A stretch of DNA of 64,000 nt from positions 1 to 64,000 of IMG/VR virus record IMGVR_UViG_3300047160_010816, one strand, 5' to 3'. Every line of letters starts with the position of its first letter. The stretch's first letter is position 1. The notes under the pieces are model-generated. The model was not told where the DNA came from, ran no database searches, and saw only the letters and a list, made by a program, of their open reading frames with translations. This DNA comes from a virus (lineage: Duplodnaviria; Caudoviricetes). This document shows, piece after piece, positions 9,817 to 54,213 of this stretch. Position numbers and translations under genes: made by a program.

Positions 9817-12800
9817 GTGGCGACCACGACCGAGCTTGAGAACCTGCTCGTCCGCCTGACCGGTGACGGCTCTTCCTACCAGCGCATGCTGGAGCAAGCC
9901 CAGGAGAGCACCGTCCGGACCGGTGCCACCATCGAGTCCGAGACGCGGCGGATCGAGGGATTCATGTCCTCCCTCCAGTCCTTCGGGCAGGGGGTGGCCC
10001 AGTCGCTGGCCTTCCTCGGCATCGCCACCGCCCTGACCGGGGCGCTGCACGCCTTCGAGGATTTCGAGAAGGGGCAGATACGCCTCCGGGCCATCATCGA
10101 CGACGGCAGGCGGTCCGTGAACGCCACGATGGAGAGCTACCGCCAGTTCGTTGATTCCATCACCGACGTGACCTCCGCCACCAAGGAGCAGGTCACGCAC
10201 ATGTTGACCCAGCTGGAGATCTACGGCAAGACGGAGGACCAGGCCAAGAAGCTCGTGGCCCAGTCGCTGGCCCTGTCGGCGGCCCTCGGCATCTCGGCCG
10301 AACACGCCATGATGGCGGCGCGGGCGATGGACGAAGGGCAAATCTTCTACGCCCGCTCCATCCTCCACATGCGCGGGGTCAAGGACGCGGCCCAGGTCGT
10401 GGCCAAGTGGCAGGACGTGATCGCCAAGGGGTTCAAGATTCAGGCGGCCCTGACCGAGACGGCCAGCTTCCAGTGGGAACGACTCCAGAAGGTCACCCGT
10501 GAGCTAACGGTCCAGATGGGCGGGCTCATGGCGGAGGGGCTGGCCCCGGTCGTCAAGGCGCTGGCCAGTACCATCGACTGGTTCCGCAACCTCGACCCGA
10601 CCGTCCGCAAGGCCACCGCCGCCGTCCTGACCTTCGTGGTCGCGGCCACCGGCTTCGGCACTCTCAAGGGGCTGATGAGCACCCCGGTCGGCAGCGTCAT
10701 CAGCGCCGCCCTGGCCGGCCCCGCCACCGTCCTCCGCGGCATCCTGGGCTCCATCCCGAGCCTATGGTCAACCATCGGCACCACCGCGTCGGTGGCCGCC
10801 CGGACTGCCGCCTCGGCCCTCCTGTTCGTCATCAACCCGGTCCGGGTCCTGTCGGCCCTCCTGTCGGGTCTGCTCCTAACCACGCGGACACTGGCCACCC
10901 TGGTCGGCTTCGCCTTCAGCCCCGTCACTGTGGGAGCAATAGCCGCCGGCGTGGCCCTGGCCGGGCTGGTCAAGCAGGCCGGCGGTCTGGCGGAGGTCTG
11001 GAAGGGCATCAAGGACGCCGGCACCGCCGCCTGGGAGTGGTTGGCCCCCGTCCGGGCCGCCCTTGCCCAGCTGTTCGGCACGCTCAAGGACCTCGGCTCG
11101 ACCGCCTTCTCCGCCCTCGGCGACGCCGCCGGCAAGGTCTGGTCGGCCCTCTCGGGTGGGGGTAAGCTCGACCTCTCGACCGTCCAGCGCTCACTAGTCA
11201 TGGCCATCCTGACCGTGGAGAACTGGGTCAAGCAGGCCGCCGCCGCCCTTGCTCCTCTGTGGCAGGCCGTGGCCGACGGGGCGGTCAAGGCGGCCACCGT
11301 GGTCCGGCAGACCTGGGACGCCGTCTGGCCACAGATCGTCGCCGCCGCCAAGGCTGCCATCCCCTACCTGGTCGGCATCTGGGACAGCATCAAGCTGGCC
11401 GCCTCTGCCCTGTGGGACTGGGTAACGGCCACCGCGCCGATCGTCTGGAACGCGGTCGCGGACGCCGTCAACATGGCCACCGCCGCCGTCGGCGGTTTCC
11501 TGGACAAGAACGAAGGAGCAATCGCCTCCCTGGTCAAGCTGACCGTGGCCGCCGCGGGGGTCTACGCCGCCTTCAAGATCGCCCAGGCGGCCGTGGCCGG
11601 GGTCGTCTTCGTCTTCGGCCTGCTGGAGGCCGCCTACACGGCCCTCCACGTCCAGCAGGTCATCAGCACCATCGCCTGGGCCGCCTGGACCGCGGCCGTG
11701 GGCATCGCCGAAGGGGTCGTGCTCCTCTTCAATATCCAGCTGGCCATCTGGAAGGGCCTGTTCGCCGCCGGCATCTTCCTCATGGGGCTGTGGACGGGGG
11801 CCTCCGTGACCGCCTCCCTCGCCACGGCCGGACTGACCGGGGCCATCGCCCTGCTGGAGGCGGTCCTGACCCCGGCCGTTGTTATCGGCTTCGCCGCCGC
11901 CGTGCTCGCCTTCGCCGGTACGCTGGCCGCGGCCGGGATCGCCGCCGGGGCACTCTACGTCGCCCTCAAGGTCGTCTGGGATACCGCCCAGAACCTCCGC
12001 GCCGCCTTCTCCGGACTGACGGAAGCCGGGGGAGCGATGGATCGTATCACGGGGGTCCTGGCCGAGTGGTGGGCCATCATCCAGGAAGTGGTCAAGGCCC
12101 TGTCGGTGGATGCCTCGCTCGCCTGGGAACTGTTTGCGGCCGGGGCGCGGCTGGCCCTGTCCCAGATAGCCGACCTGTGGCCGCCCGTCTGGAATCTCAT
12201 CAAGGTCGGCTTTGAGCAAGCCTGGAACGTGGTCTGGGCCACGGCCAGGGAGTCCGCCATCGAAGGCATGGCCCAGGTCGGGGCCGCCATCGTCAACGCC
12301 CATACCTGGGCCTTCCGCCAGGTGCTGGACGCCACGGTCAAGTTCTACAACATGCTCGGCCGCGGCATCGGCGACCTCGGCACCGCACTCGGCAAGGCGT
12401 TCAAACTCCCGTTCACCATAACCCTGGCCGACATCCAGAAGGCGGTCACCGAGAACTTCGCCGACACCCTCGACAACATCCTGAGCATCGCGGAGAAAGC
12501 CCTGTTGTTCATCAACCCGGCGATGGCCGTGACCCTCATGGGGGCGAGATCGGCAGCCAAGAATGCCGCCAGTGCCGCCGCGGCGGTCTACGACGATGCG
12601 ATCAAGGCCGCCCAGGACAAGGACCTTAACGCCCTCGGCAAGGCCGTCAGGATAGCCCTGGCCCCGGCCTACGCTGCACTGAACGAGGTGGACAAGGCGA
12701 CCGCCGACTGGCTGAGTGGGGTGTCAGACAGGTCGAGGGAGGCCCAGGCAAAAGTCGTCAAGTCGGCCAGTGATGCCATCAACGAGGCCCTCCGCGGCGT

Positions 12801-13331: not shown

Positions 13332-13394
13332 GGGCGGGGGGCCAGCAGTCTATTACACGGTCTCACGTAGCAAAGCGCCGGCTGCTCCCCGCCC
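13332..13394 (-). ncRNA. Solo TIGR-like guide unit U1, antisense to the tail operon
   Basis: Minus strand AGCCGGCG-ctttgctacg-TGAGACCG-tgtaatagac-TGCTGGCC within an outer GGGCGGGG/CCCCGCCC stem. Confidence 0.8.
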
Positions 13395-13400
13395 GACTCT

Positions 13401-13430
13401 ATTATACCGTACCGGAGGGGTATGTCGCAA
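13401..13430 (-). promoter_or_regulatory. Sigma70-like promoter for U1
   Basis: TTGCGA-18-TATAAT on the minus strand; the -10 box ends 6 nt before the outer stem. Confidence 0.6.
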
Positions 13431-36462: not shown

Positions 36463-36631
36463 TGTCTTCCTCTCTCTTTGGTTGAGAATCCCGCCTCTGC
36501 GTTGACCGGACTTGGCAACCGGCACCGGGCACACGCTCGGTGGTCGCATTAAGGAAAAGAGGGGAGGGCCGGCATCGGTTCCTACGGTATCACCCCGTGG
36601 CACGCCGGTTCCTCCCCCTGTCTCTCACTGG

Positions 36632-41816: not shown

Positions 41817-42066
41817 TGTCGTTGTCCTCCTCTTCCTCGACGAGTGAGCAGCCGGCGTAGTGGGTAAAGCCGTCGGCGTCGGGGCAGCCACACTCCCCAC
41901 AGCAGTCACAGCAGGGGCAGTACACCGTGTACCGACCCGTCGAGGCGAGATGCTCCCCGCACTCGACACATTCGCCCAAACAACGGCCGTGGTAATCATA
42001 ACCAGGGCACTCGCTATAGGTCAGTTTGCAAGAGTGGCCGTATGAGCTGATTTTGGGAAGAGACAT
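41800..42066 (-). CDS. Small Cys-rich protein
   Basis: GAGGAG RBS; multiple CxxC. Confidence 0.5.
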   Translation of the reverse strand: MSLPKISSYGHSCKLTYSECPGYDYHGRCLGECVECGEHLASTGRYTVYCPCCDCCGECGCPDADGFTHYAGCSLVEEEEDNDNDEEE

Positions 42067-42490
42067 GATGTGCTCCTCTATGGGCGTGCGGTTTCGGCCC
42101 CTTACCGGGGGCCATCGTCGGCGGAGGCGAAGAAGCCTCCGGACCGCGTTGGGCGTGGGCGAGCGGTTCTACCGGAGAAGCCAGGGCCACGTGAGCCGTC
42201 CTTGCGTTCCTTCCACTCCCGCTCCTCCGCCCTGCCCGCCCGACTACTGGGAAAACGCCGGTGGGGTCATAGGGCCGGGTCGGTGGGGTGTCCACCTGGC
42301 TGTCCGTCGTCCTTCCCTTACTTCCCCTGGGGTGGAGTCCCGGAGTTACCTGGGTCAGGTTTAGGTCCACTGACCAGCCCCCGGGGCATCGTCCCTTGGT
42401 TTTGGGGGGAGGACCGAGTTTTCAAAGACCCTGGAAGGTGGGGGCGGTTCCCCGATTCCCTTCCTCTCTTCTCTCTCCTGGGCTAGAGTT

Positions 42491-42518
42491 ATTATACAGA
42501 ACCAGGCAAGAGTGGCAA
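42491..42518 (-). promoter_or_regulatory. Sigma70-like leftward promoter
   Basis: TTGCCA-16-TATAAT. Confidence 0.6.
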
Positions 42519-42721
42519 GGGAGCAGCCCCGAAAAGTGCCGCTTCCCACCCGCCTAAGCCCTTCCTGGTAGAGGGGTTAGGGAAATCTGGGAAAAAATGA
42601 TTCGGGAGAAGGGGTCACTTTTCCAGGGCGATAGTTAGTAACAGCTGGCGGAGGCTCGGCCGCCCTACTATCAGGGGAACTAATGGTGCAGAAATCCTCG
42701 GAATTCCGGGGGATTTTCCCC

Positions 42722-44521: not shown

Positions 44522-44627
44522 GGCCGGCGTCACAAATTTTGAGAACGTAGGAAGGGTTGCCGGCCCTTGCCCGTTGACACTCTGGCCGGCGTTTAGCGGA
44601 GTGAGATCGTCGGTGCTCTTGCCGGCC
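44522..44627 (+). ncRNA. TIGR-like guide units U2 (44522-44565) and U3 (44584-44627)
   Basis: GGCCGGCG-tcacaaattt-TGAGAACG-taggaagggt-TGCCGGCC and GGCCGGCG-tttagcggag-TGAGATCG-tcggtgctct-TGCCGGCC. Confidence 0.8.
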
Positions 44628-44647
44628 TATAGCCAAGGAGGAAAACG

Positions 44648-45250
44648 ATGCCCCTTCTACCTACCCAGACCCCGTTGCAGTGTCACCTCAAGCGCTGGCG
44701 ACTCGGCTGCGGTGCCCCCGAGTGCCAGGAAGCGTTCAAGCGGGTCTTGTGCAAGGGGACCGTCCCCTGCCAGGTGCTCTTCATCGGCCAGGCACCGGGC
44801 AAGACGGAGAACGTGGTCGGCAAACCCTTCGAGGGCCAGGCCGGCCGGCTCCTCGACCGCATCGTCCACGCCGCCCTCGGGGCGCGTGAGCCGCCGGTGA
44901 CGTGGGCGATGACGAACCTGGTCTGTTGCTTCCCCGGCGCGGGGGAGGACGGCAAGGACCTCCAGCCGGACCCGGAGCAGATCGAGAGCTGCTCCTCCAG
45001 ACTGGTGGAGTTCGTGGCCCTCTGCGACCCCCTGCTGCTCGTCTGCGTCGGCAGTATGGCCCGCGACTGGACCGACCCGCTTCTGAAGTTCTCGGTGAAG
45101 TTCCACCGCAACATCCCGAGCATCGACATCCGCCACCCCGCCTCGTTCCTCCACGCCAAGGTGCCGGAGTCCCAGCTCCAGCAGGGCATCCGCAGGGCGA
45201 CCGCCGCGGTCCGCACCGCCCTGGAGGAAGTGTTAGCCAGAACCGTATAG
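44648..45250 (+). CDS. Uracil-DNA glycosylase family 4
   Basis: LFIGQAPG, GKPFEGQAG, TNLVCCFP and HPA motifs; Cys for an Fe-S cluster. Confidence 0.85.
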   Translation: MPLLPTQTPLQCHLKRWRLGCGAPECQEAFKRVLCKGTVPCQVLFIGQAPGKTENVVGKPFEGQAGRLLDRIVHAALGAREPPVTWAMTNLVCCFPGAGEDGKDLQPDPEQIESCSSRLVEFVALCDPLLLVCVGSMARDWTDPLLKFSVKFHRNIPSIDIRHPASFLHAKVPESQLQQGIRRATAAVRTALEEVLARTV

Positions 45251-45258
45251 TGTTCTAT

Positions 45259-45302
45259 GGCCGGCGTTAGGGTGCGTGAGACCGTGGGTTTTGCTGCCGG
45301 CC
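45259..45302 (+). ncRNA. TIGR-like guide unit U4
   Basis: GGCCGGCG-ttagggtgcg-TGAGACCG-tgggttttgc-TGCCGGCC; TATAGT at 45246-45251 upstream and a T-run downstream. Confidence 0.8.
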
Positions 45303-45394
45303 TTTTTAACTCGTGGGGAGGAGCAGGCGTGGGCGAAAGTGATACCGATGCCGGCCTTGCCAGCCCTCCCCACCCTTTCAAGGAGAACCGCGTT

Positions 45395-45967
45395 ATGGTT
45401 GATGTACCCAAGAAAGTGTCCGACCTCTGCAAGGAGGCGGTCAAAGAATTTCCGAATGACATAGACAAAGCCACCCAGAAGGTCTGGGGTGCCGTCCGCA
45501 AGATGAAGGACCGGGATGAGCTGACGCTCCTCCTGGCCGAGCACGGGTGTCAGGAACTCGTTTATGACGCCCGCCATTGTAACAACGCCACCATCAAGAG
45601 GGATGTTGGCTATTACAAAGACGTGAAGCCCAAGGTCAACGGCGTGTCGGGGGAGACCCTGCGCGTGTTCAAGAATTGCTTCGAGTACCTCATCGGCGGC
45701 CGCCGCCTCGGCAGCATCCCCGGCGAGGACCTGCTGCCCCTGGCGGACAAAGAGTTGGCGTTAGCCAACGGCCACCATGCCAATGAAGACTTGCTCCGGT
45801 GGCTACACCCGAAGGTCCCCAGCGGCCGGACCGTGGAGGAGGCCGTCAAGGCCCGAGCCCTGGGCCAGGCCATGCGCCGGTTCGAACAGAAGTACCAGAA
45901 GAGCGCCGCCCGCGTCACCGGCGAGGACGAGGAGAAGGATAAGGACGAGGAAGAGGATAAGGAGTAA
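45395..45967 (+). CDS. Hypothetical protein inside the TIGR-Tas locus
   Basis: AAGGAG RBS; flanked by U4 and the U5-U8 array. Confidence 0.65.
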   Translation: MVDVPKKVSDLCKEAVKEFPNDIDKATQKVWGAVRKMKDRDELTLLLAEHGCQELVYDARHCNNATIKRDVGYYKDVKPKVNGVSGETLRVFKNCFEYLIGGRRLGSIPGEDLLPLADKELALANGHHANEDLLRWLHPKVPSGRTVEEAVKARALGQAMRRFEQKYQKSAARVTGEDEEKDKDEEEDKE

Positions 45968-45978
45968 GGGGGCACTCG

Positions 45979-46152
45979 GCCCGGCGTATAGGTTTCTGAG
46001 ACCGACAAGAGAGGTGCCGGGCGTTACTACCAGTGAGACCGTAGCAGGCTTTGCCCGGCGCTCTGCCCTCTGAGACCGTTACGACCGTTGCCGGGCTGAT
46101 TGACTTACCGCCGGCGCGTCATGGGGTGTGACCGCAAGAACTTTTGCCAGCG
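45979..46152 (+). ncRNA. TIGR-like array, units U5-U8, directly upstream of the Tas gene
   Basis: Alternating edge (TGCC(C/G)GGCG) and loop (TG(A/T)GACCG) repeats with unique 10-nt spacers; 37-nt period. Confidence 0.85.
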
Positions 46153-46180
46153 GACTACCTAACCGAAAGGAACCAGAACC

Positions 46181-47284
46181 ATGCCACCTGTAAAGAACCG
46201 CCCCAGTGGAAACGCCAACGGAACTAATGCCCCGGCGAACGATCAGCTGAGACCGAGAAGTCCGGTACCGGGGCCATCTCCCTCCAGGAATGGGAAGGGC
46301 CGCAGGCCAGTCCCGGCCCGGGTCGATGCAGACCTGATTAAACAACTCCAGAACTCGCAGCGGCTGCGGCAGCAGGTAATCAAGAGTCGCAACATGCAGG
46401 CCAACCGGCTGAAGGCCATCGTGGCCGGTACGATGGGCTACCGGTCGGGGCTAGAGAAGAAGGAGCGGCTGGCCCTGTTCAAGGCCGCCTCGGCCCGCAT
46501 TGAGCAGATCGTCCGTGGCGAGTTACCGGGCGATGAGATGGAGGACCTGGTCAAGACCACCCGAATCGGCATCGACGCCTTTGACCTGATGGAGGGCAAC
46601 CTCAAGGCCACGCTGGAGGACCTGGCCAAACGGCTGCCGCCCTCCATCGTCGAGTGGGTCGGCAAGCCGGAACAGATGGGCTTCTCCTGGCTCTCCCTGG
46701 CGCAAATCGTGGGCGAGGCAGGGGACCTCTGGAACTATCCCACCCACAGTCACCTGTGGCGGCGGATGGGCTGCGCCCCGTGGGAGTGGAACGGGGAGAC
46801 ACATATGGGCTCGACCTGGCGCTACCTGAAAAAGCTGCCGTCGGATCAATGGGAGCAATATGGCTACCCGCCGCGACGGAGGAGCATCGGATACGTGATT
46901 GGCGAGAATCTGATGCGGGGCAACATGCTCCGCGAGAGGAAGGGTAAAAAGGAGGCGGAGGCCGGCGTACCCCGTGCTGAGTCCGTTGTGAATGGTGCCG
47001 ACCCCGCCTCCGATTCCTCCGACCCGGTGGAGGACCCGAAGGTGAGGGTCCTGTGGAAAGGCCCATATCGTCTCCATTATGAGCAGAAACGAGCCGAGTT
47101 CCTCCAGGCCCACCCCGACGCCCGCAAGGGGCACCAGCACCTCCACGGCATGCTCCTCGCCTTCAAGCTGCTATTGAAGCAGCTCTGGTGCCAGTGGCAC
47201 GGAGTCAACAATCCGCCCCGCTTCCGACCCGAGCGGGATGCCCGGAGGCGGGCCAAGTTCCAGGGCCGGCGCAGCCAGAAATGA
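46181..47284 (+). CDS. Nop/IS110-C-terminal-domain RNA-binding protein without a nuclease domain (TasA-like)
   Basis: Coiled-coil N-half; LAQIVGEAGDLWNYPTHSHLWRRMGCAP, GPYRLHYEQKRAEF and HxHLHGMLLAFKLLLKQLW parallel Transposase_20/Nop motifs; no DEDD RuvC or HNH motif seen; next to a dual-spacer array. Confidence 0.8.
   Translation: MPPVKNRPSGNANGTNAPANDQLRPRSPVPGPSPSRNGKGRRPVPARVDADLIKQLQNSQRLRQQVIKSRNMQANRLKAIVAGTMGYRSGLEKKERLALFKAASARIEQIVRGELPGDEMEDLVKTTRIGIDAFDLMEGNLKATLEDLAKRLPPSIVEWVGKPEQMGFSWLSLAQIVGEAGDLWNYPTHSHLWRRMGCAPWEWNGETHMGSTWRYLKKLPSDQWEQYGYPPRRRSIGYVIGENLMRGNMLRERKGKKEAEAGVPRAESVVNGADPASDSSDPVEDPKVRVLWKGPYRLHYEQKRAEFLQAHPDARKGHQHLHGMLLAFKLLLKQLWCQWHGVNNPPRFRPERDARRRAKFQGRRSQK
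46229..46274 (+). ncRNA. Guide unit U9 embedded in the Tas CDS
   Basis: GCCCCGGCG-aacgatcagc-TGAGACCG-agaagtccgg-TACCGGGGC. Confidence 0.65.
46960..47003 (+). ncRNA. Guide unit U10 embedded in the Tas CDS
   Basis: GGCCGGCG-taccccgtgc-TGAGTCCG-ttgtgaatgg-TGCCGACC. Confidence 0.65.
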
Positions 47285-48049: not shown

Positions 48050-48251
48050 GGCGGCGGAGCCGGCCAGCTGCTGGAACAAGGCGAAGGACGAAGAGTTGGT
48101 CTTCGTCCTCCTCGGCCGGGACAGGGCGTCCCCTGTCGCCATCCGGGCCTGGTGCGAGGAGCGGATACGTTTGGGCAAGAACCAGCCCAATGACCCACAG
48201 ATTGTAGAGGCCCTTGACCTGATCCGGGCAATGGAGGGACTGGCAACATGA
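48033..48251 (+). CDS. Conserved small phage protein
   Basis: KAKDEELVFVLLGRD motif. Confidence 0.55.
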   Translation: MLKRLEAAEPASCWNKAKDEELVFVLLGRDRASPVAIRAWCEERIRLGKNQPNDPQIVEALDLIRAMEGLAT

Positions 48252-49405
48252 ACCTGGCCGACCGTCTGAAGAACGAGAAGATTGTCCTCAAGCCGCCGCG
48301 GCAGGGTCCCCTGTGGGCCGGGCCGGAGGACAGCGGCCCCCTCGGCGGGGTGACCCAATCCATGTTAGGCCACTTTCTGGTGGACCGGGAGCGGTTCCGC
48401 CTCCGCTACATCGAGGGGCTGAAGCCGGCCGAGAAGTTCAGCCACCGGATGCACTACGGCGAGATGTGGCACAAGTGTGAGGAGGCATTGGCTGGCACAG
48501 CAGCCTTCGACCCGGGTATGGTCGAGCCCTTCCGTACCGAGTGGGAGGGGCCGCTAAAGGAATACGCCGCCGGCTTGTGCAAGCAGTTCCCCACCAGCCA
48601 GCAGCAGGTGGACCACTGGTACAATGTCTGCAAGACCCAGTTCCCCATCTACGTCGGCCACTGGCGGAGGCACCCCGACGTCAAGGCCCGCAAGCCGCTC
48701 CTCCAGGAGCAGGTATTTAGCGTGCCGATCAAGCTACCCTCCGGTCGCACCGTTTATGTCAAGGGCAAGTGGGACAGCGTGGACCTCGTCAGCAAGGAAA
48801 TATGGCTGGCCGAGAACAAGACCAAGGGGGACATCAACGAGGCCCAGCTCCAGCGGCAACTAAAGTTCGACCTCCAGACCATGCTGTATCTGGTGACCCT
48901 CCAGGAGTATCAGAAGGTAGGCGGGAACGGGGAGGACTCTTTGAAGTGGTCGGAGGGTAATACCAAGGTCGCCGGCGTCCGCTACAACGTCGTGCGCCGG
49001 CCTCTCTCCGGCGGCAAGGGCAGCATCGTCCGCCACAAAGCCACCAAGACCAAGCCGGAGGAGAGCAAGGAGGCTTTCTACCAACGGGTGGCGGATATCA
49101 TCAGGGCCGAGCCGGAGACCTACTTCATGCGCTGGAACGTGGAGGTGTCCACGGTCGACCTCGACAAGTTCCGCCGCCAGTGCCTCGACCCGGTCCTGGA
49201 GCAACTATGTCTATGGTATGCTGTCATTGCGAGGAAGGAGAAGCCCTGGGCTCTGCCGGAGTGGGCCGTTAGCTGGAGAACACCTTATGGGTTGTGGATG
49301 CCCCAGCTGGAGGGGACCGTGGACGACCTCGACTATTTTCTCGATGAAGGAAGCATGGGTGGCCTACGTAGGGTGGACACGCTGTTCGGGGAACTGGAGG
49401 GGTAA
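48248..49405 (+). CDS. PD-(D/E)XK exonuclease (RecB/Cas4-like)
   Basis: G..WH...E, GKWD..D, ENKT and QTMLY motifs. Confidence 0.8.
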   Translation: MNLADRLKNEKIVLKPPRQGPLWAGPEDSGPLGGVTQSMLGHFLVDRERFRLRYIEGLKPAEKFSHRMHYGEMWHKCEEALAGTAAFDPGMVEPFRTEWEGPLKEYAAGLCKQFPTSQQQVDHWYNVCKTQFPIYVGHWRRHPDVKARKPLLQEQVFSVPIKLPSGRTVYVKGKWDSVDLVSKEIWLAENKTKGDINEAQLQRQLKFDLQTMLYLVTLQEYQKVGGNGEDSLKWSEGNTKVAGVRYNVVRRPLSGGKGSIVRHKATKTKPEESKEAFYQRVADIIRAEPETYFMRWNVEVSTVDLDKFRRQCLDPVLEQLCLWYAVIARKEKPWALPEWAVSWRTPYGLWMPQLEGTVDDLDYFLDEGSMGGLRRVDTLFGELEG

Positions 49406-53618: not shown

Positions 53619-53662
53619 GGCCGGCGTCTCATCGCCTGAGACCGTTGCCCTTTCTGCCGGCC
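53619..53662 (+). ncRNA. Guide unit U11
   Basis: GGCCGGCG-tctcatcgcc-TGAGACCG-ttgccctttc-TGCCGGCC. Confidence 0.8.
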
Positions 53663-53686
53663 CCACTTACACGAAAGGATCCTACT

Positions 53687-53953
53687 GTGGCCCGACAACT
53701 GAAGCAACGACTACGAAGATTGGAGCGCGCCCTCGACCGCGTGGCCGTCCGCGACTCCAGCCGCGCCGAGGAGGCCGTCGATGAACTGGTCAAAGTCTGC
53801 CTCGATTGCCCGGCCCGGCAGAGCAGCGATGAGGATACGGAGGACTCCCTCTATGATTACATCTCGTGGGGGGAGAATGTGGTGAAGGCGGCCGAGGAGG
53901 TCCGCCGGCTCCTGGCCCTGGAGGCCGCCGGTGCTCCCGTGGTCCGGCGCTGA
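53687..53953 (+). CDS. Hypothetical protein bracketed by U11 and U12
   Basis: AAAGGA RBS, GTG start. Confidence 0.55.
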   Translation: MARQLKQRLRRLERALDRVAVRDSSRAEEAVDELVKVCLDCPARQSSDEDTEDSLYDYISWGENVVKAAEEVRRLLALEAAGAPVVRR

Positions 53954-53960
53954 TGCTATT

Positions 53961-54004
53961 GGCCGGCGTACACCCACCTGAGACCGCTTCGCATGGTGCC
54001 GGCC
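53961..54004 (+). ncRNA. Guide unit U12
   Basis: GGCCGGCG-tacacccacc-TGAGACCG-cttcgcatgg-TGCCGGCC. Confidence 0.8.
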
Positions 54005-54067
54005 CTATTATCCCTGGACGCTCCAAAATCATTTCCCCTCTGGGCGAATGCTGGAGATGTGTCCTCC

Positions 54068-54090
54068 GCGGCAGTGGGTAAAGCTGCCGC
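54068..54090 (+). other. Conserved hairpin with loop TGGGTAAAG, copy 2
   Basis: GCGGCAG-tgggtaaag-CTGCCGC, 10 nt upstream of U13. Confidence 0.6.
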
Positions 54091-54100
54091 ACAACCTACT

Positions 54101-54213
54101 GGCCGGCGTGGTATCCCGTGAGACCGTAGCTCCTGGTGCCGGCCCTTTGACAACTTAACTGCTCCTCTGGGCCGGCGTGATTGACACTGGGACCGTTGCA
54201 TTCCGTGCCGGCC
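54101..54213 (+). ncRNA. Guide units U13 (54101-54144) and U14 (54170-54213)
   Basis: GGCCGGCG-tggtatcccg-TGAGACCG-tagctcctgg-TGCCGGCC and GGCCGGCG-tgattgacac-TGGGACCG-ttgcattccg-TGCCGGCC. Confidence 0.8.

Follow-up and report, generated by a model that had tools for sequence, protein, structure and literature searches.

A probable stem-loop TIGR-TasA system with guide units dispersed over the genome of a tailed phage

Introduction

Positions 44522-47284 of the viral record IMGVR_UViG_3300047160_010816 combine short alternating repeats with an open reading frame (ORF) at 46181-47284, for which an earlier assessment made from the letters alone (the sequence-only reading) had proposed a phage-encoded, RNA-guided TIGR-Tas system with a nuclease-free effector. 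The source contig comprises 77,187 bp at a GC content of 64%, and the stretch analysed here, referred to as the window, is its first 64 kb. The locus raises the question whether ORF and repeats form a protein-guide pair, to which branch of the TIGR-Tas systems they belong, and what a Tas protein devoid of a nuclease could do in a phage. According to the analysis described below, the locus is very probably a TIGR-TasA system that is carried by a phage and belongs to the stem-loop clade, and it would bind DNA under RNA guidance without cutting it. Systems of this kind are already known (Faure et al. 2025; Xu et al. 2026; Guan et al. 2026), the traits that are uncommon here being arrays with zero linker, the genome-wide spread of the guides and a box C reading CGU.

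TIGR-Tas systems are new, compact RNA-guided DNA binders that are independent of a protospacer-adjacent motif, while their natural roles, the biogenesis of their guides and the origin of their spacers are still open. The Tas literature describes targeting of both DNA strands and recognition of box C/D elements by a symmetric dimer. In the published guides (tigRNAs) each of the two repeats opens with box D (UG) and closes with box C (CCA), with a G-C pair between these boxes (Faure et al. 2025, PMC12045711). A C-terminal Tyr/His loop, represented by Y289 and H296 in SpTasH, enables dual-repeat Tas proteins to cut the guides themselves. A stem-loop architecture has been described as well (Faure et al., PMC12045711; Xu et al., bioRxiv 10.64898/2026.09.09.750476), and its named members are PlTasA from a Peromyscus leucopus gut contig, BlTasA and MbTasA (PMC12045711; bioRxiv 10.64898/2026.09.09.750476; Guan et al. 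2026, bioRxiv 10.64898/2026.08.11.744272). By electrophoretic mobility shift and reporter assays TasA acts as a reversible RNA-guided repressor, MbTasA blocking transcription (Xu et al. 2026).

Structure and identity of TasA

The gene tasA (46181-47284, + strand) is an intact ORF encoding 367 amino acids, whose identity follows from a fold search after sequence searches had left it unsettled. Neither Pfam nor PHROGs holds a family for the protein and no Pfam nuclease was matched, TasR was hit only weakly by a profile search (E 0.089), and the one result of a PDB sequence search was discarded as a coiled-coil artefact. An AlphaFold model built from 41 sequences has a mean predicted local distance difference test score (pLDDT) of 83 and a predicted template-modelling score (pTM) of 0.76, with pLDDT values below 50 only at residues 1-25 and 262-274. 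The model comprises a disordered N-terminal segment (residues 1-49), a coiled coil (50-150) and a Nop-type C-terminal domain (about 150-345), the long helices extending over residues 50-84, 93-111 and 121-149.

A structural comparison with Foldseek, which the sequence-only reading had named as a check on a Nop, IS110 or Tas fold, revealed a Tas fold, the ten best PDB matches all being TIGR-Tas structures and the model resembling the solved structures of TasH and TasR more closely than those of IS110 recombinases or Nop5. Residue 50 of the model aligns to residue 65 of TasH and to residue 111 of TasR, thus to positions past their nuclease domains. As the nuclease domains (HNH in TasH, RuvC in TasR) remain outside the structural alignments, and residues 1-49 are disordered, the proposed absence of an N-terminal nuclease is confirmed at the level of the model, and the predicted fold identifies ORF 46181-47284 as a Tas protein without a nuclease domain, i.e. 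the TasA type that had been suggested.

In contrast to the IS110/IS621 recombinases (PDB codes 8WT6, 8WT9, 9T56), this system lacks a DEDD RuvC-like N-terminal domain as well as a bridge RNA and element ends, and it possesses many guides instead of one; of IS621, only the C-terminal part (chain residues 124-320) aligns to the TasA model. Similarity is found to the box C/D ribonucleoproteins (RNPs; Nop5, Nop56/58; 3PLA, 3ID5) in the Nop domain carried on a coiled-coil dimer, a dimer being predicted for TasA, and in guides with two antisense segments beside C/D-type boxes. Compared with the dual-repeat systems TaTasR (9MTY), SpTasH of Salicola phage CGphi29 (9W03, 9W04, 21KL) and FpTasA, the protein has neither an HNH nor a RuvC domain and no dyad equivalent to Y289/H296 of SpTasH. 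A conserved C-terminal Tyr/His processing loop was not found in the family alignment of 41 sequences; behind the last conserved helix (LWxEW) the sequences end in short, unconserved tails, and that of the present TasA contains no Tyr.

The family is large, comprising 1703 representative clusters at E values up to 0.001, all without functional annotation, and the 120 closest homologs, which stem from metagenome and NCBI records, bear 'hypothetical protein' as their sole name. In alignments of the homologs conservation starts near residue 50, and therefore the automatic gene call from M72 (296 amino acids) is too short; the alignments place the start at 46181. The guide units described below mislead automatic gene calls, both for tasA and for the ORF upstream of it.

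Architecture of the guide units

The repeats follow the plan [UGCC|GGCG-U]-9 nt-[UG-AGAC-CG-U]-9 nt, with UG as box D and CG(U) as box C in both repeats, so that a single unit reads as RNA GGCG-U, 9 nt, UG-AGAC-CG-U, 9 nt, UGCC. Column counts over 59 units yield the consensus edge TGCCGGCG and the consensus loop TGAGACCG. Within the loop TG and CG are invariant (59/59), and in the edge G2 is conserved in 53, C7 in 58 and G8 in all 59 units. The base after the repeat is T in 52 of 59 cases behind the edge, where spacer A follows, and in 40 of 59 behind the loop, where spacer B follows, whereas the next nine positions vary freely. The alternative parse into 9-nt repeats and 9-nt spacers, which had been offered for the units first noticed, thus holds genome-wide, as does the observation that the boxes differ from those of Faure et al. 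(UG and CCA), both repeats starting with TG and ending with CG(T).

The terminal helix is evident from several comparisons. The edges of solo units extend to seven complementary pairs, and minimum-energy folds close the terminal stem. Among 22 units the stem cells are paired in 94% of cases, as opposed to 26-49% when the partner is slid, compensatory G-C to C-G changes occur at two stem pairs, and the stem covariation score of 0.144 was reached by none of 500 shuffles. In the same units the pair between the box D G and the box C C of the loop is G-C in 22/22, and the corresponding edge pair (columns 12-43) is C-G in 20/22. A covariance model (CM) trained on 34 intergenic units assigns E values of 4e-10 to 1e-6 to most units and recovers units left out of the training. 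Among the latter are both units within tasA, with E values of 3e-6 and 5.5e-4, and both minus-strand units, with 1.8e-4 and 2.4e-3. No Rfam family was matched over 42-64 kb.

It has to be considered whether such repeats could be part of coding sequence or have arisen by chance in a GC-rich genome, the more so as long minus-strand ORFs can be drawn across some of the arrays. However, the pattern GCCGGCG-N-TGAGACCG-N-GCCGG matches the window seven times, always on the + strand, as against 0 matches in 100 shuffles, the units occupy gaps between ORFs with a strong coding signal in the GC content of third codon positions, all but one unit are oriented along the surrounding operon, and related loci agree. 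The probability of this explanation is close to negligible, and together with the CM values the counts substantiate the claim that the repeat units are real.

The region 44522-47284 holds ten units, all on the + strand, in which solo units and a mini-array are interleaved with a gene of the uracil-DNA glycosylase (UDG) family and a 190-residue ORF. Two solo units at 44522-44565 (stem GGCCGGC/GCCGGCC; CM 47.0 bits, E 6e-9) and 44584-44627 (46.2 bits, E 9e-9) are followed by a third at 45259-45302 (48.1 bits, E 3e-9), which begins 9 nt past the UDG stop codon and whose stem is closed in the fold, and by a degenerate, possibly decayed unit at 45322-45365 (20.8 bits, E 0.013). At 45979-46096 three tandem units with 9-nt edges repeat at a period of 37 nt (E 2e-8 and 5e-8); their alternating edges TGCCGGGCG and TGCCCGGCG are mutually reverse complementary and display a compensatory G-C to C-G stem change. 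A further degenerate unit is located directly upstream of the tasA ribosome-binding site at 46109-46152 (23.4 bits, E 0.003).

The remaining two units lie in frame within tasA and coincide with the two disordered segments of the model; both are outside the CM training set. The unit at 46230-46273 (26.5 bits, E 5.5e-4) occupies residues 17-31 of the disordered N-terminus and has a CCCCGG/CCGGGG stem that is closed in the fold, while the one at 46960-47003 (35.7 bits, E 3e-6) falls into an insertion that is both variable and disordered (residues 260-275), at a position where most homologs have a gap and where residues 262-274 have pLDDT values below 50. Intragenic units in disordered segments have also been reported for other TasA genes (Xu et al. 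2026, bioRxiv 10.64898/2026.09.09.750476).

The sequence-only reading had placed a single array in front of tasA. The repeats themselves stand, but the single array does not, since the units are scattered over the genome. On the whole 77-kb contig about 64 units are distributed over about 20 intercistronic sites with a spread of 59 kb, and a relaxed scan places about 60 of them at 44.5-72.1 kb of the + strand. The units begin 2-12 nt past a stop codon, the following ribosome-binding site lies 10-25 nt beyond their end, and they are present in the replication module as well as near the terminase gene, in the module for packaging and head. Such tight placement at about 20 sites, combined with stable terminal stems, would also suit intercistronic processing or stability hairpins of the repetitive extragenic palindromic (REP) type, with TasA as an RNA-binding partner and variable segments that carry no targeting information. 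REP-type hairpins, however, need no two fixed 9-nt segments, unique in nearly every unit, between invariant UG and CG, and in the relatives the same plan is found as compact arrays beside tas. As a replacement for the guide function such hairpins are very improbable, the two roles being compatible with each other.

Comparison with stem-loop and dual-repeat systems

Thirty viral contigs encode a related protein, and 24 of these loci are informative for units. In 21 of the 24 the tas strand carries units of the same plan, consisting of a variable complementary stem, CG-A, 9 nt, UGWAACCG-A, 9 nt, UG and the second stem arm, whereas a reversed control pattern has 0 matches in the related loci. The stems of the relatives vary from unit to unit and yet stay complementary, and box C is CGA in both repeats. 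One relative (L015) has three-pair stems (GGC/GCC), a linker of 8-9 nt and a period of 45 nt.

Compared with this plan, the arrays of the present phage are, to judge by their repeats, stem-loop units from which the linker has been removed, so that the 5' arm GGCG of each unit follows immediately on the 3' arm UGCC of its predecessor, the two together making up the 8-nt edge. In tandem runs of 3-12 units this leads to an exact 36-nt period of the dual-repeat kind. The locus belongs to the stem-loop clade of TasA, not to the dual-repeat one, because the protein has no Tyr/His dyad and all informative relatives carry stem-loop units, and its arrays have come to resemble dual-repeat arrays. The assignment to TIGR-TasA made in the sequence-only reading is retained, but in place of a classic dual-repeat array the relatives indicate a zero-linker derivative of stem-loop units. 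An intermediate between the two kinds of array is mentioned in passing by Faure et al. (PMC12045711), and this phage provides a clear natural example of it.

With the stem-loop TIGR-TasA systems the locus shares a nuclease-free protein with a disordered N-terminus, its location in a phage, the lack of a conserved C-terminal Tyr/His loop, a stem-closed unit in which box C and box D enclose two spacers of about 9 nt, and units that are found upstream, downstream and inside tas, there in disordered segments. It differs from them in its uniform GCCGGC arms without linker, which give a shared edge of 8-9 nt and a repeat of 36-37 nt, in the third base of box C, which is U and not A, and in the number and distribution of its units, those of the relatives staying close to tas, at a few kb at most. 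In five related phage genomes with a completeness of 83-100%, all units are confined to 2-7 kb around tas, and the 59-kb spread is therefore unusual for the family. It demonstrates that guides need not be gathered in one array but can be distributed over intergenic gaps in early as well as late operons. From the dual-repeat systems the locus is further distinguished by a box C of CGU instead of CCA and by its nearest sequence relatives, all of which are stem-loop systems.

Several arrays are followed at the stem base by CUU, CUA or CUC and others are not, a CUU motif being clear at this position in the relatives L017 and L018.

The conserved partner gene orfX

Directly upstream of tasA the gene orfX (45395-45967, + strand) encodes a helical protein of 190 residues, a homolog of which occupies the same position in 24 of 24 full-length relatives. 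In this phage orfX is flanked by guide units on both sides, and the automatic call of 236 residues, starting at 45257, reads through two of them; alignments of the homologs put the start at 45395. The model of the protein is helical (pLDDT 81), and the sequence carries conserved His-containing motifs. There is no Pfam match, and structure searches, Foldseek included, returned no solved structure above background and no known nuclease fold. No lead came from the ESM Atlas, and a word-based search for homologs yielded 7 proteins only. In those parts of Faure et al. 2025 (PMC12045711) and Xu et al. 2026 that were covered, the operonic Tas partner named is a ParB-like protein (TasParB) only. For orfX there is neither a Pfam match nor a ParB chain among the Foldseek matches, Faure et al. 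having used HHpred. Keyword searches in selected sections of Faure 2025, Xu 2026 and Guan 2026 returned no mention of orfX.

Since stem-loop tigRNAs come from a clade without the Tyr/His self-processing loop, a cutting or loading factor may be missing. A tentative proposal, to which we give rather less than an even chance, is that this TasA clade constitutes a two-protein system, in which orfX would be obligatory and would either cut or load stem-loop tigRNAs or serve as the effector bound at the DNA. If this were true, the spread of guides into nearly every operon of this phage would tie guide supply to each stage of infection. The conserved orfX could bear on the unsolved processing of stem-loop tigRNAs.

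A related possibility is that a cutter is assembled in trans, TasA and its guide finding the DNA and a separate protein cleaving or modifying it, either orfX or the product of a PD-(D/E)XK nuclease gene (48248-49405), which lies 1 kb downstream of tasA. The synteny of orfX with tas in all 24 relatives and its His-containing motifs would fit such an arrangement, as would the recurrence of the PD-(D/E)XK gene near tas in 4 distinct related loci. However, orfX matches no known nuclease fold, the PD-(D/E)XK gene is absent from most related loci, and here it adjoins the gene of a Sak4-like annealing protein, as befits a phage recombination module. A cutter in trans is hence considered unlikely.

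Proposed function and targets

A course of events can be proposed for the stem-loop TIGR-TasA system favoured here. The units would be transcribed within long polycistronic phage mRNAs, as their placement implies, each unit being closed by a helix that the palindromic GCCGGC edge forms. Because the clade has no conserved Tyr/His processing loop, a host RNase or another factor would have to cut the units out, tandem arrays probably being cut between UGCC and GGCG with release of 36-nt units. By analogy with the work on TasA, TasR and TasH, a TasA dimer would hold one guide, one protomer sitting on the edge boxes and the other on the loop boxes. The two spacers would then pair with adjacent stretches on opposite DNA strands, spacer A on the one and spacer B on the other, as in the published Tas systems, and the bound nuclease-less complex could block transcription or replication of the target. 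Such a non-cutting role would agree with the experiments on other TasA proteins reported by Xu et al. 2026. A gene annotated with the PHROG label 'RNase E' (62356-63072) was rejected as a processing candidate, Pfam giving weak helix-turn-helix hits instead.

Several observations weigh against a TasA system of this kind. Box C has U as its third base, where the relatives and the published systems have A, and binding of the guides by TasA is for this reason an assumption. Neighbours in tandem arrays share one edge repeat, so that full stems cannot form in all units at once. No DNA target was found either. A search of the phage itself with all 62 guides in four geometries gave 3-mismatch hits only, in numbers equal to those of control geometries, and 0.54 Mb of related phage loci contain no targets beyond the level of the control geometries. 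Exact 18-mers of two recurrent guides have 5 and 7 hits in IMG/VR, which lie on unrelated contigs of 29-64% GC and are judged to be at about chance level. The lack of a matching site in the phage itself, on the other hand, speaks for the proposed function, and DNA of the host or of a rival element would for this reason be the most likely target.

The guides could also address RNA, pairing in the manner of box C/D guides with host or phage transcripts and changing their translation or stability. Fold and guide plan are common to box C/D RNPs and the units are located inside mRNAs. On the other hand, all Tas proteins characterised so far, including two TasA, act on double-stranded DNA, and no complementary site was found in phage transcripts on either strand. 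RNA as the target is thus regarded as decidedly unlikely.

Further units and genome context

Within the window, additional + strand units follow downstream of tasA. Four solo units (53619, 53961, 54101 and 54170; together 53619-54213) precede the DNA polymerase gene with CM E values of 6e-10 to 2e-8, and solo units at 57103-57146 (48.4 bits, E 3e-9) and 63544-63587 (44.3 bits, E 3e-8) stand alone, the former with a compensatory GCCCGGC/GCCGGGC stem. A tandem array of four units at a 36-nt period occupies 63062-63213, and the start of another, which runs off the window, was located at 63962-64000, both by repeat scan and CM. About 40 more units follow after the window end, up to contig position 72062 (covered by L001, i.e. 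contig positions 60001-77187).

Two solo units are encoded on the minus strand. The one at 36567-36612 (28.5 bits, E 1.8e-4; fold z -2.7), outside the CM training set, is sense to a minus-strand operon and has an additional outer stem GGGGAGG/CCCTCCCC. The other, at 13340-13383 (23.8 bits, E 0.0024; fold z -3.5), is antisense to the tail operon, where its neighbours are the tape measure gene and the next tail gene, and has an outer stem of 8 bp. In a promoter scan of the minus strand at 13340-13430 a promoter-like TTGCGA-18-TATAAT was found to end 6 nt upstream of its stem, and this unit appears to have its own promoter.

The phage origin claimed for the system is borne out by the tape measure protein, virion structural protein, large terminase, DNA polymerase, helicase and primase genes on the contig, which further encodes a Sak4-like annealing protein and a DNA methyltransferase. 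A close cultured relative of the phage was not found, and 50,697 cultured-phage records contain 0 relatives of TasA. The large terminase has very distant matches alone, and no host is inferred for that reason. The sole match in genome collections, a 73.8-kb contig binned into a Dehalococcoidia metagenome-assembled genome, was dismissed as a host clue because that contig is identical with an IMG/VR phage that CheckV rates as 100% complete. Isolated 151-nt pieces from four soil metagenome runs, some of them identical to the window, are evidence of presence in soil and not of expression.

The plus-strand gene run that carries the guides begins at about 42.68 kb, following a divergent control region (41990-42680) in which a strong promoter-like sequence (TTGCCA-16-TATAAT, minus strand, 42518-42491) points toward the minus-strand replication operon. 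Under sigma-70 scan rules no + strand promoter was found at 44.4-44.6 kb; a TTGACA/TATGCT pair with a 15-nt spacer lies upstream of the first unit. The UDG-superfamily gene (44648-45250) has guide units on both sides, and homologs of it and of the PD-(D/E)XK gene recur near tas in the related phage contigs L007, L008, L011 and L013.

The spacers show some regularities of their own. In spacer B a start with UAG is frequent (of 59 units, 40 have the T, 28 the A and 27 the G), and so is a final G (30/59); spacer A is without such a bias beyond its first base. Four units, at 63098-63133 in the window and at contig positions 71623, 71731 and 71983 (L001:11623-11658, 11731-11766 and 11983-12018), have the spacer B AACGGTCTCA in common, which matches the consensus loop plus two bases (TGAGACCGTT) exactly in reverse complement. 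These units differ in spacer A, and their loops are non-consensus, TGAAACCG in three and TGGACCCG in one. The shared spacer could reflect self-recognition of array DNA, pairing within the precursor RNA or a trace of spacer origin.

Downstream of the window a 51-nt direct repeat of 96% identity, which holds a whole unit, flanks an ORF of 114 residues at contig positions 67351-67401 and 67731-67781 (7351-7401 and 7731-7781 in L001 numbering), and the spacer B CGGCGTCAAG recurs together with the variant edge TGCTGGCG at contig positions 64295 and 66772. Both observations suggest that units may have spread by duplication or recombination.

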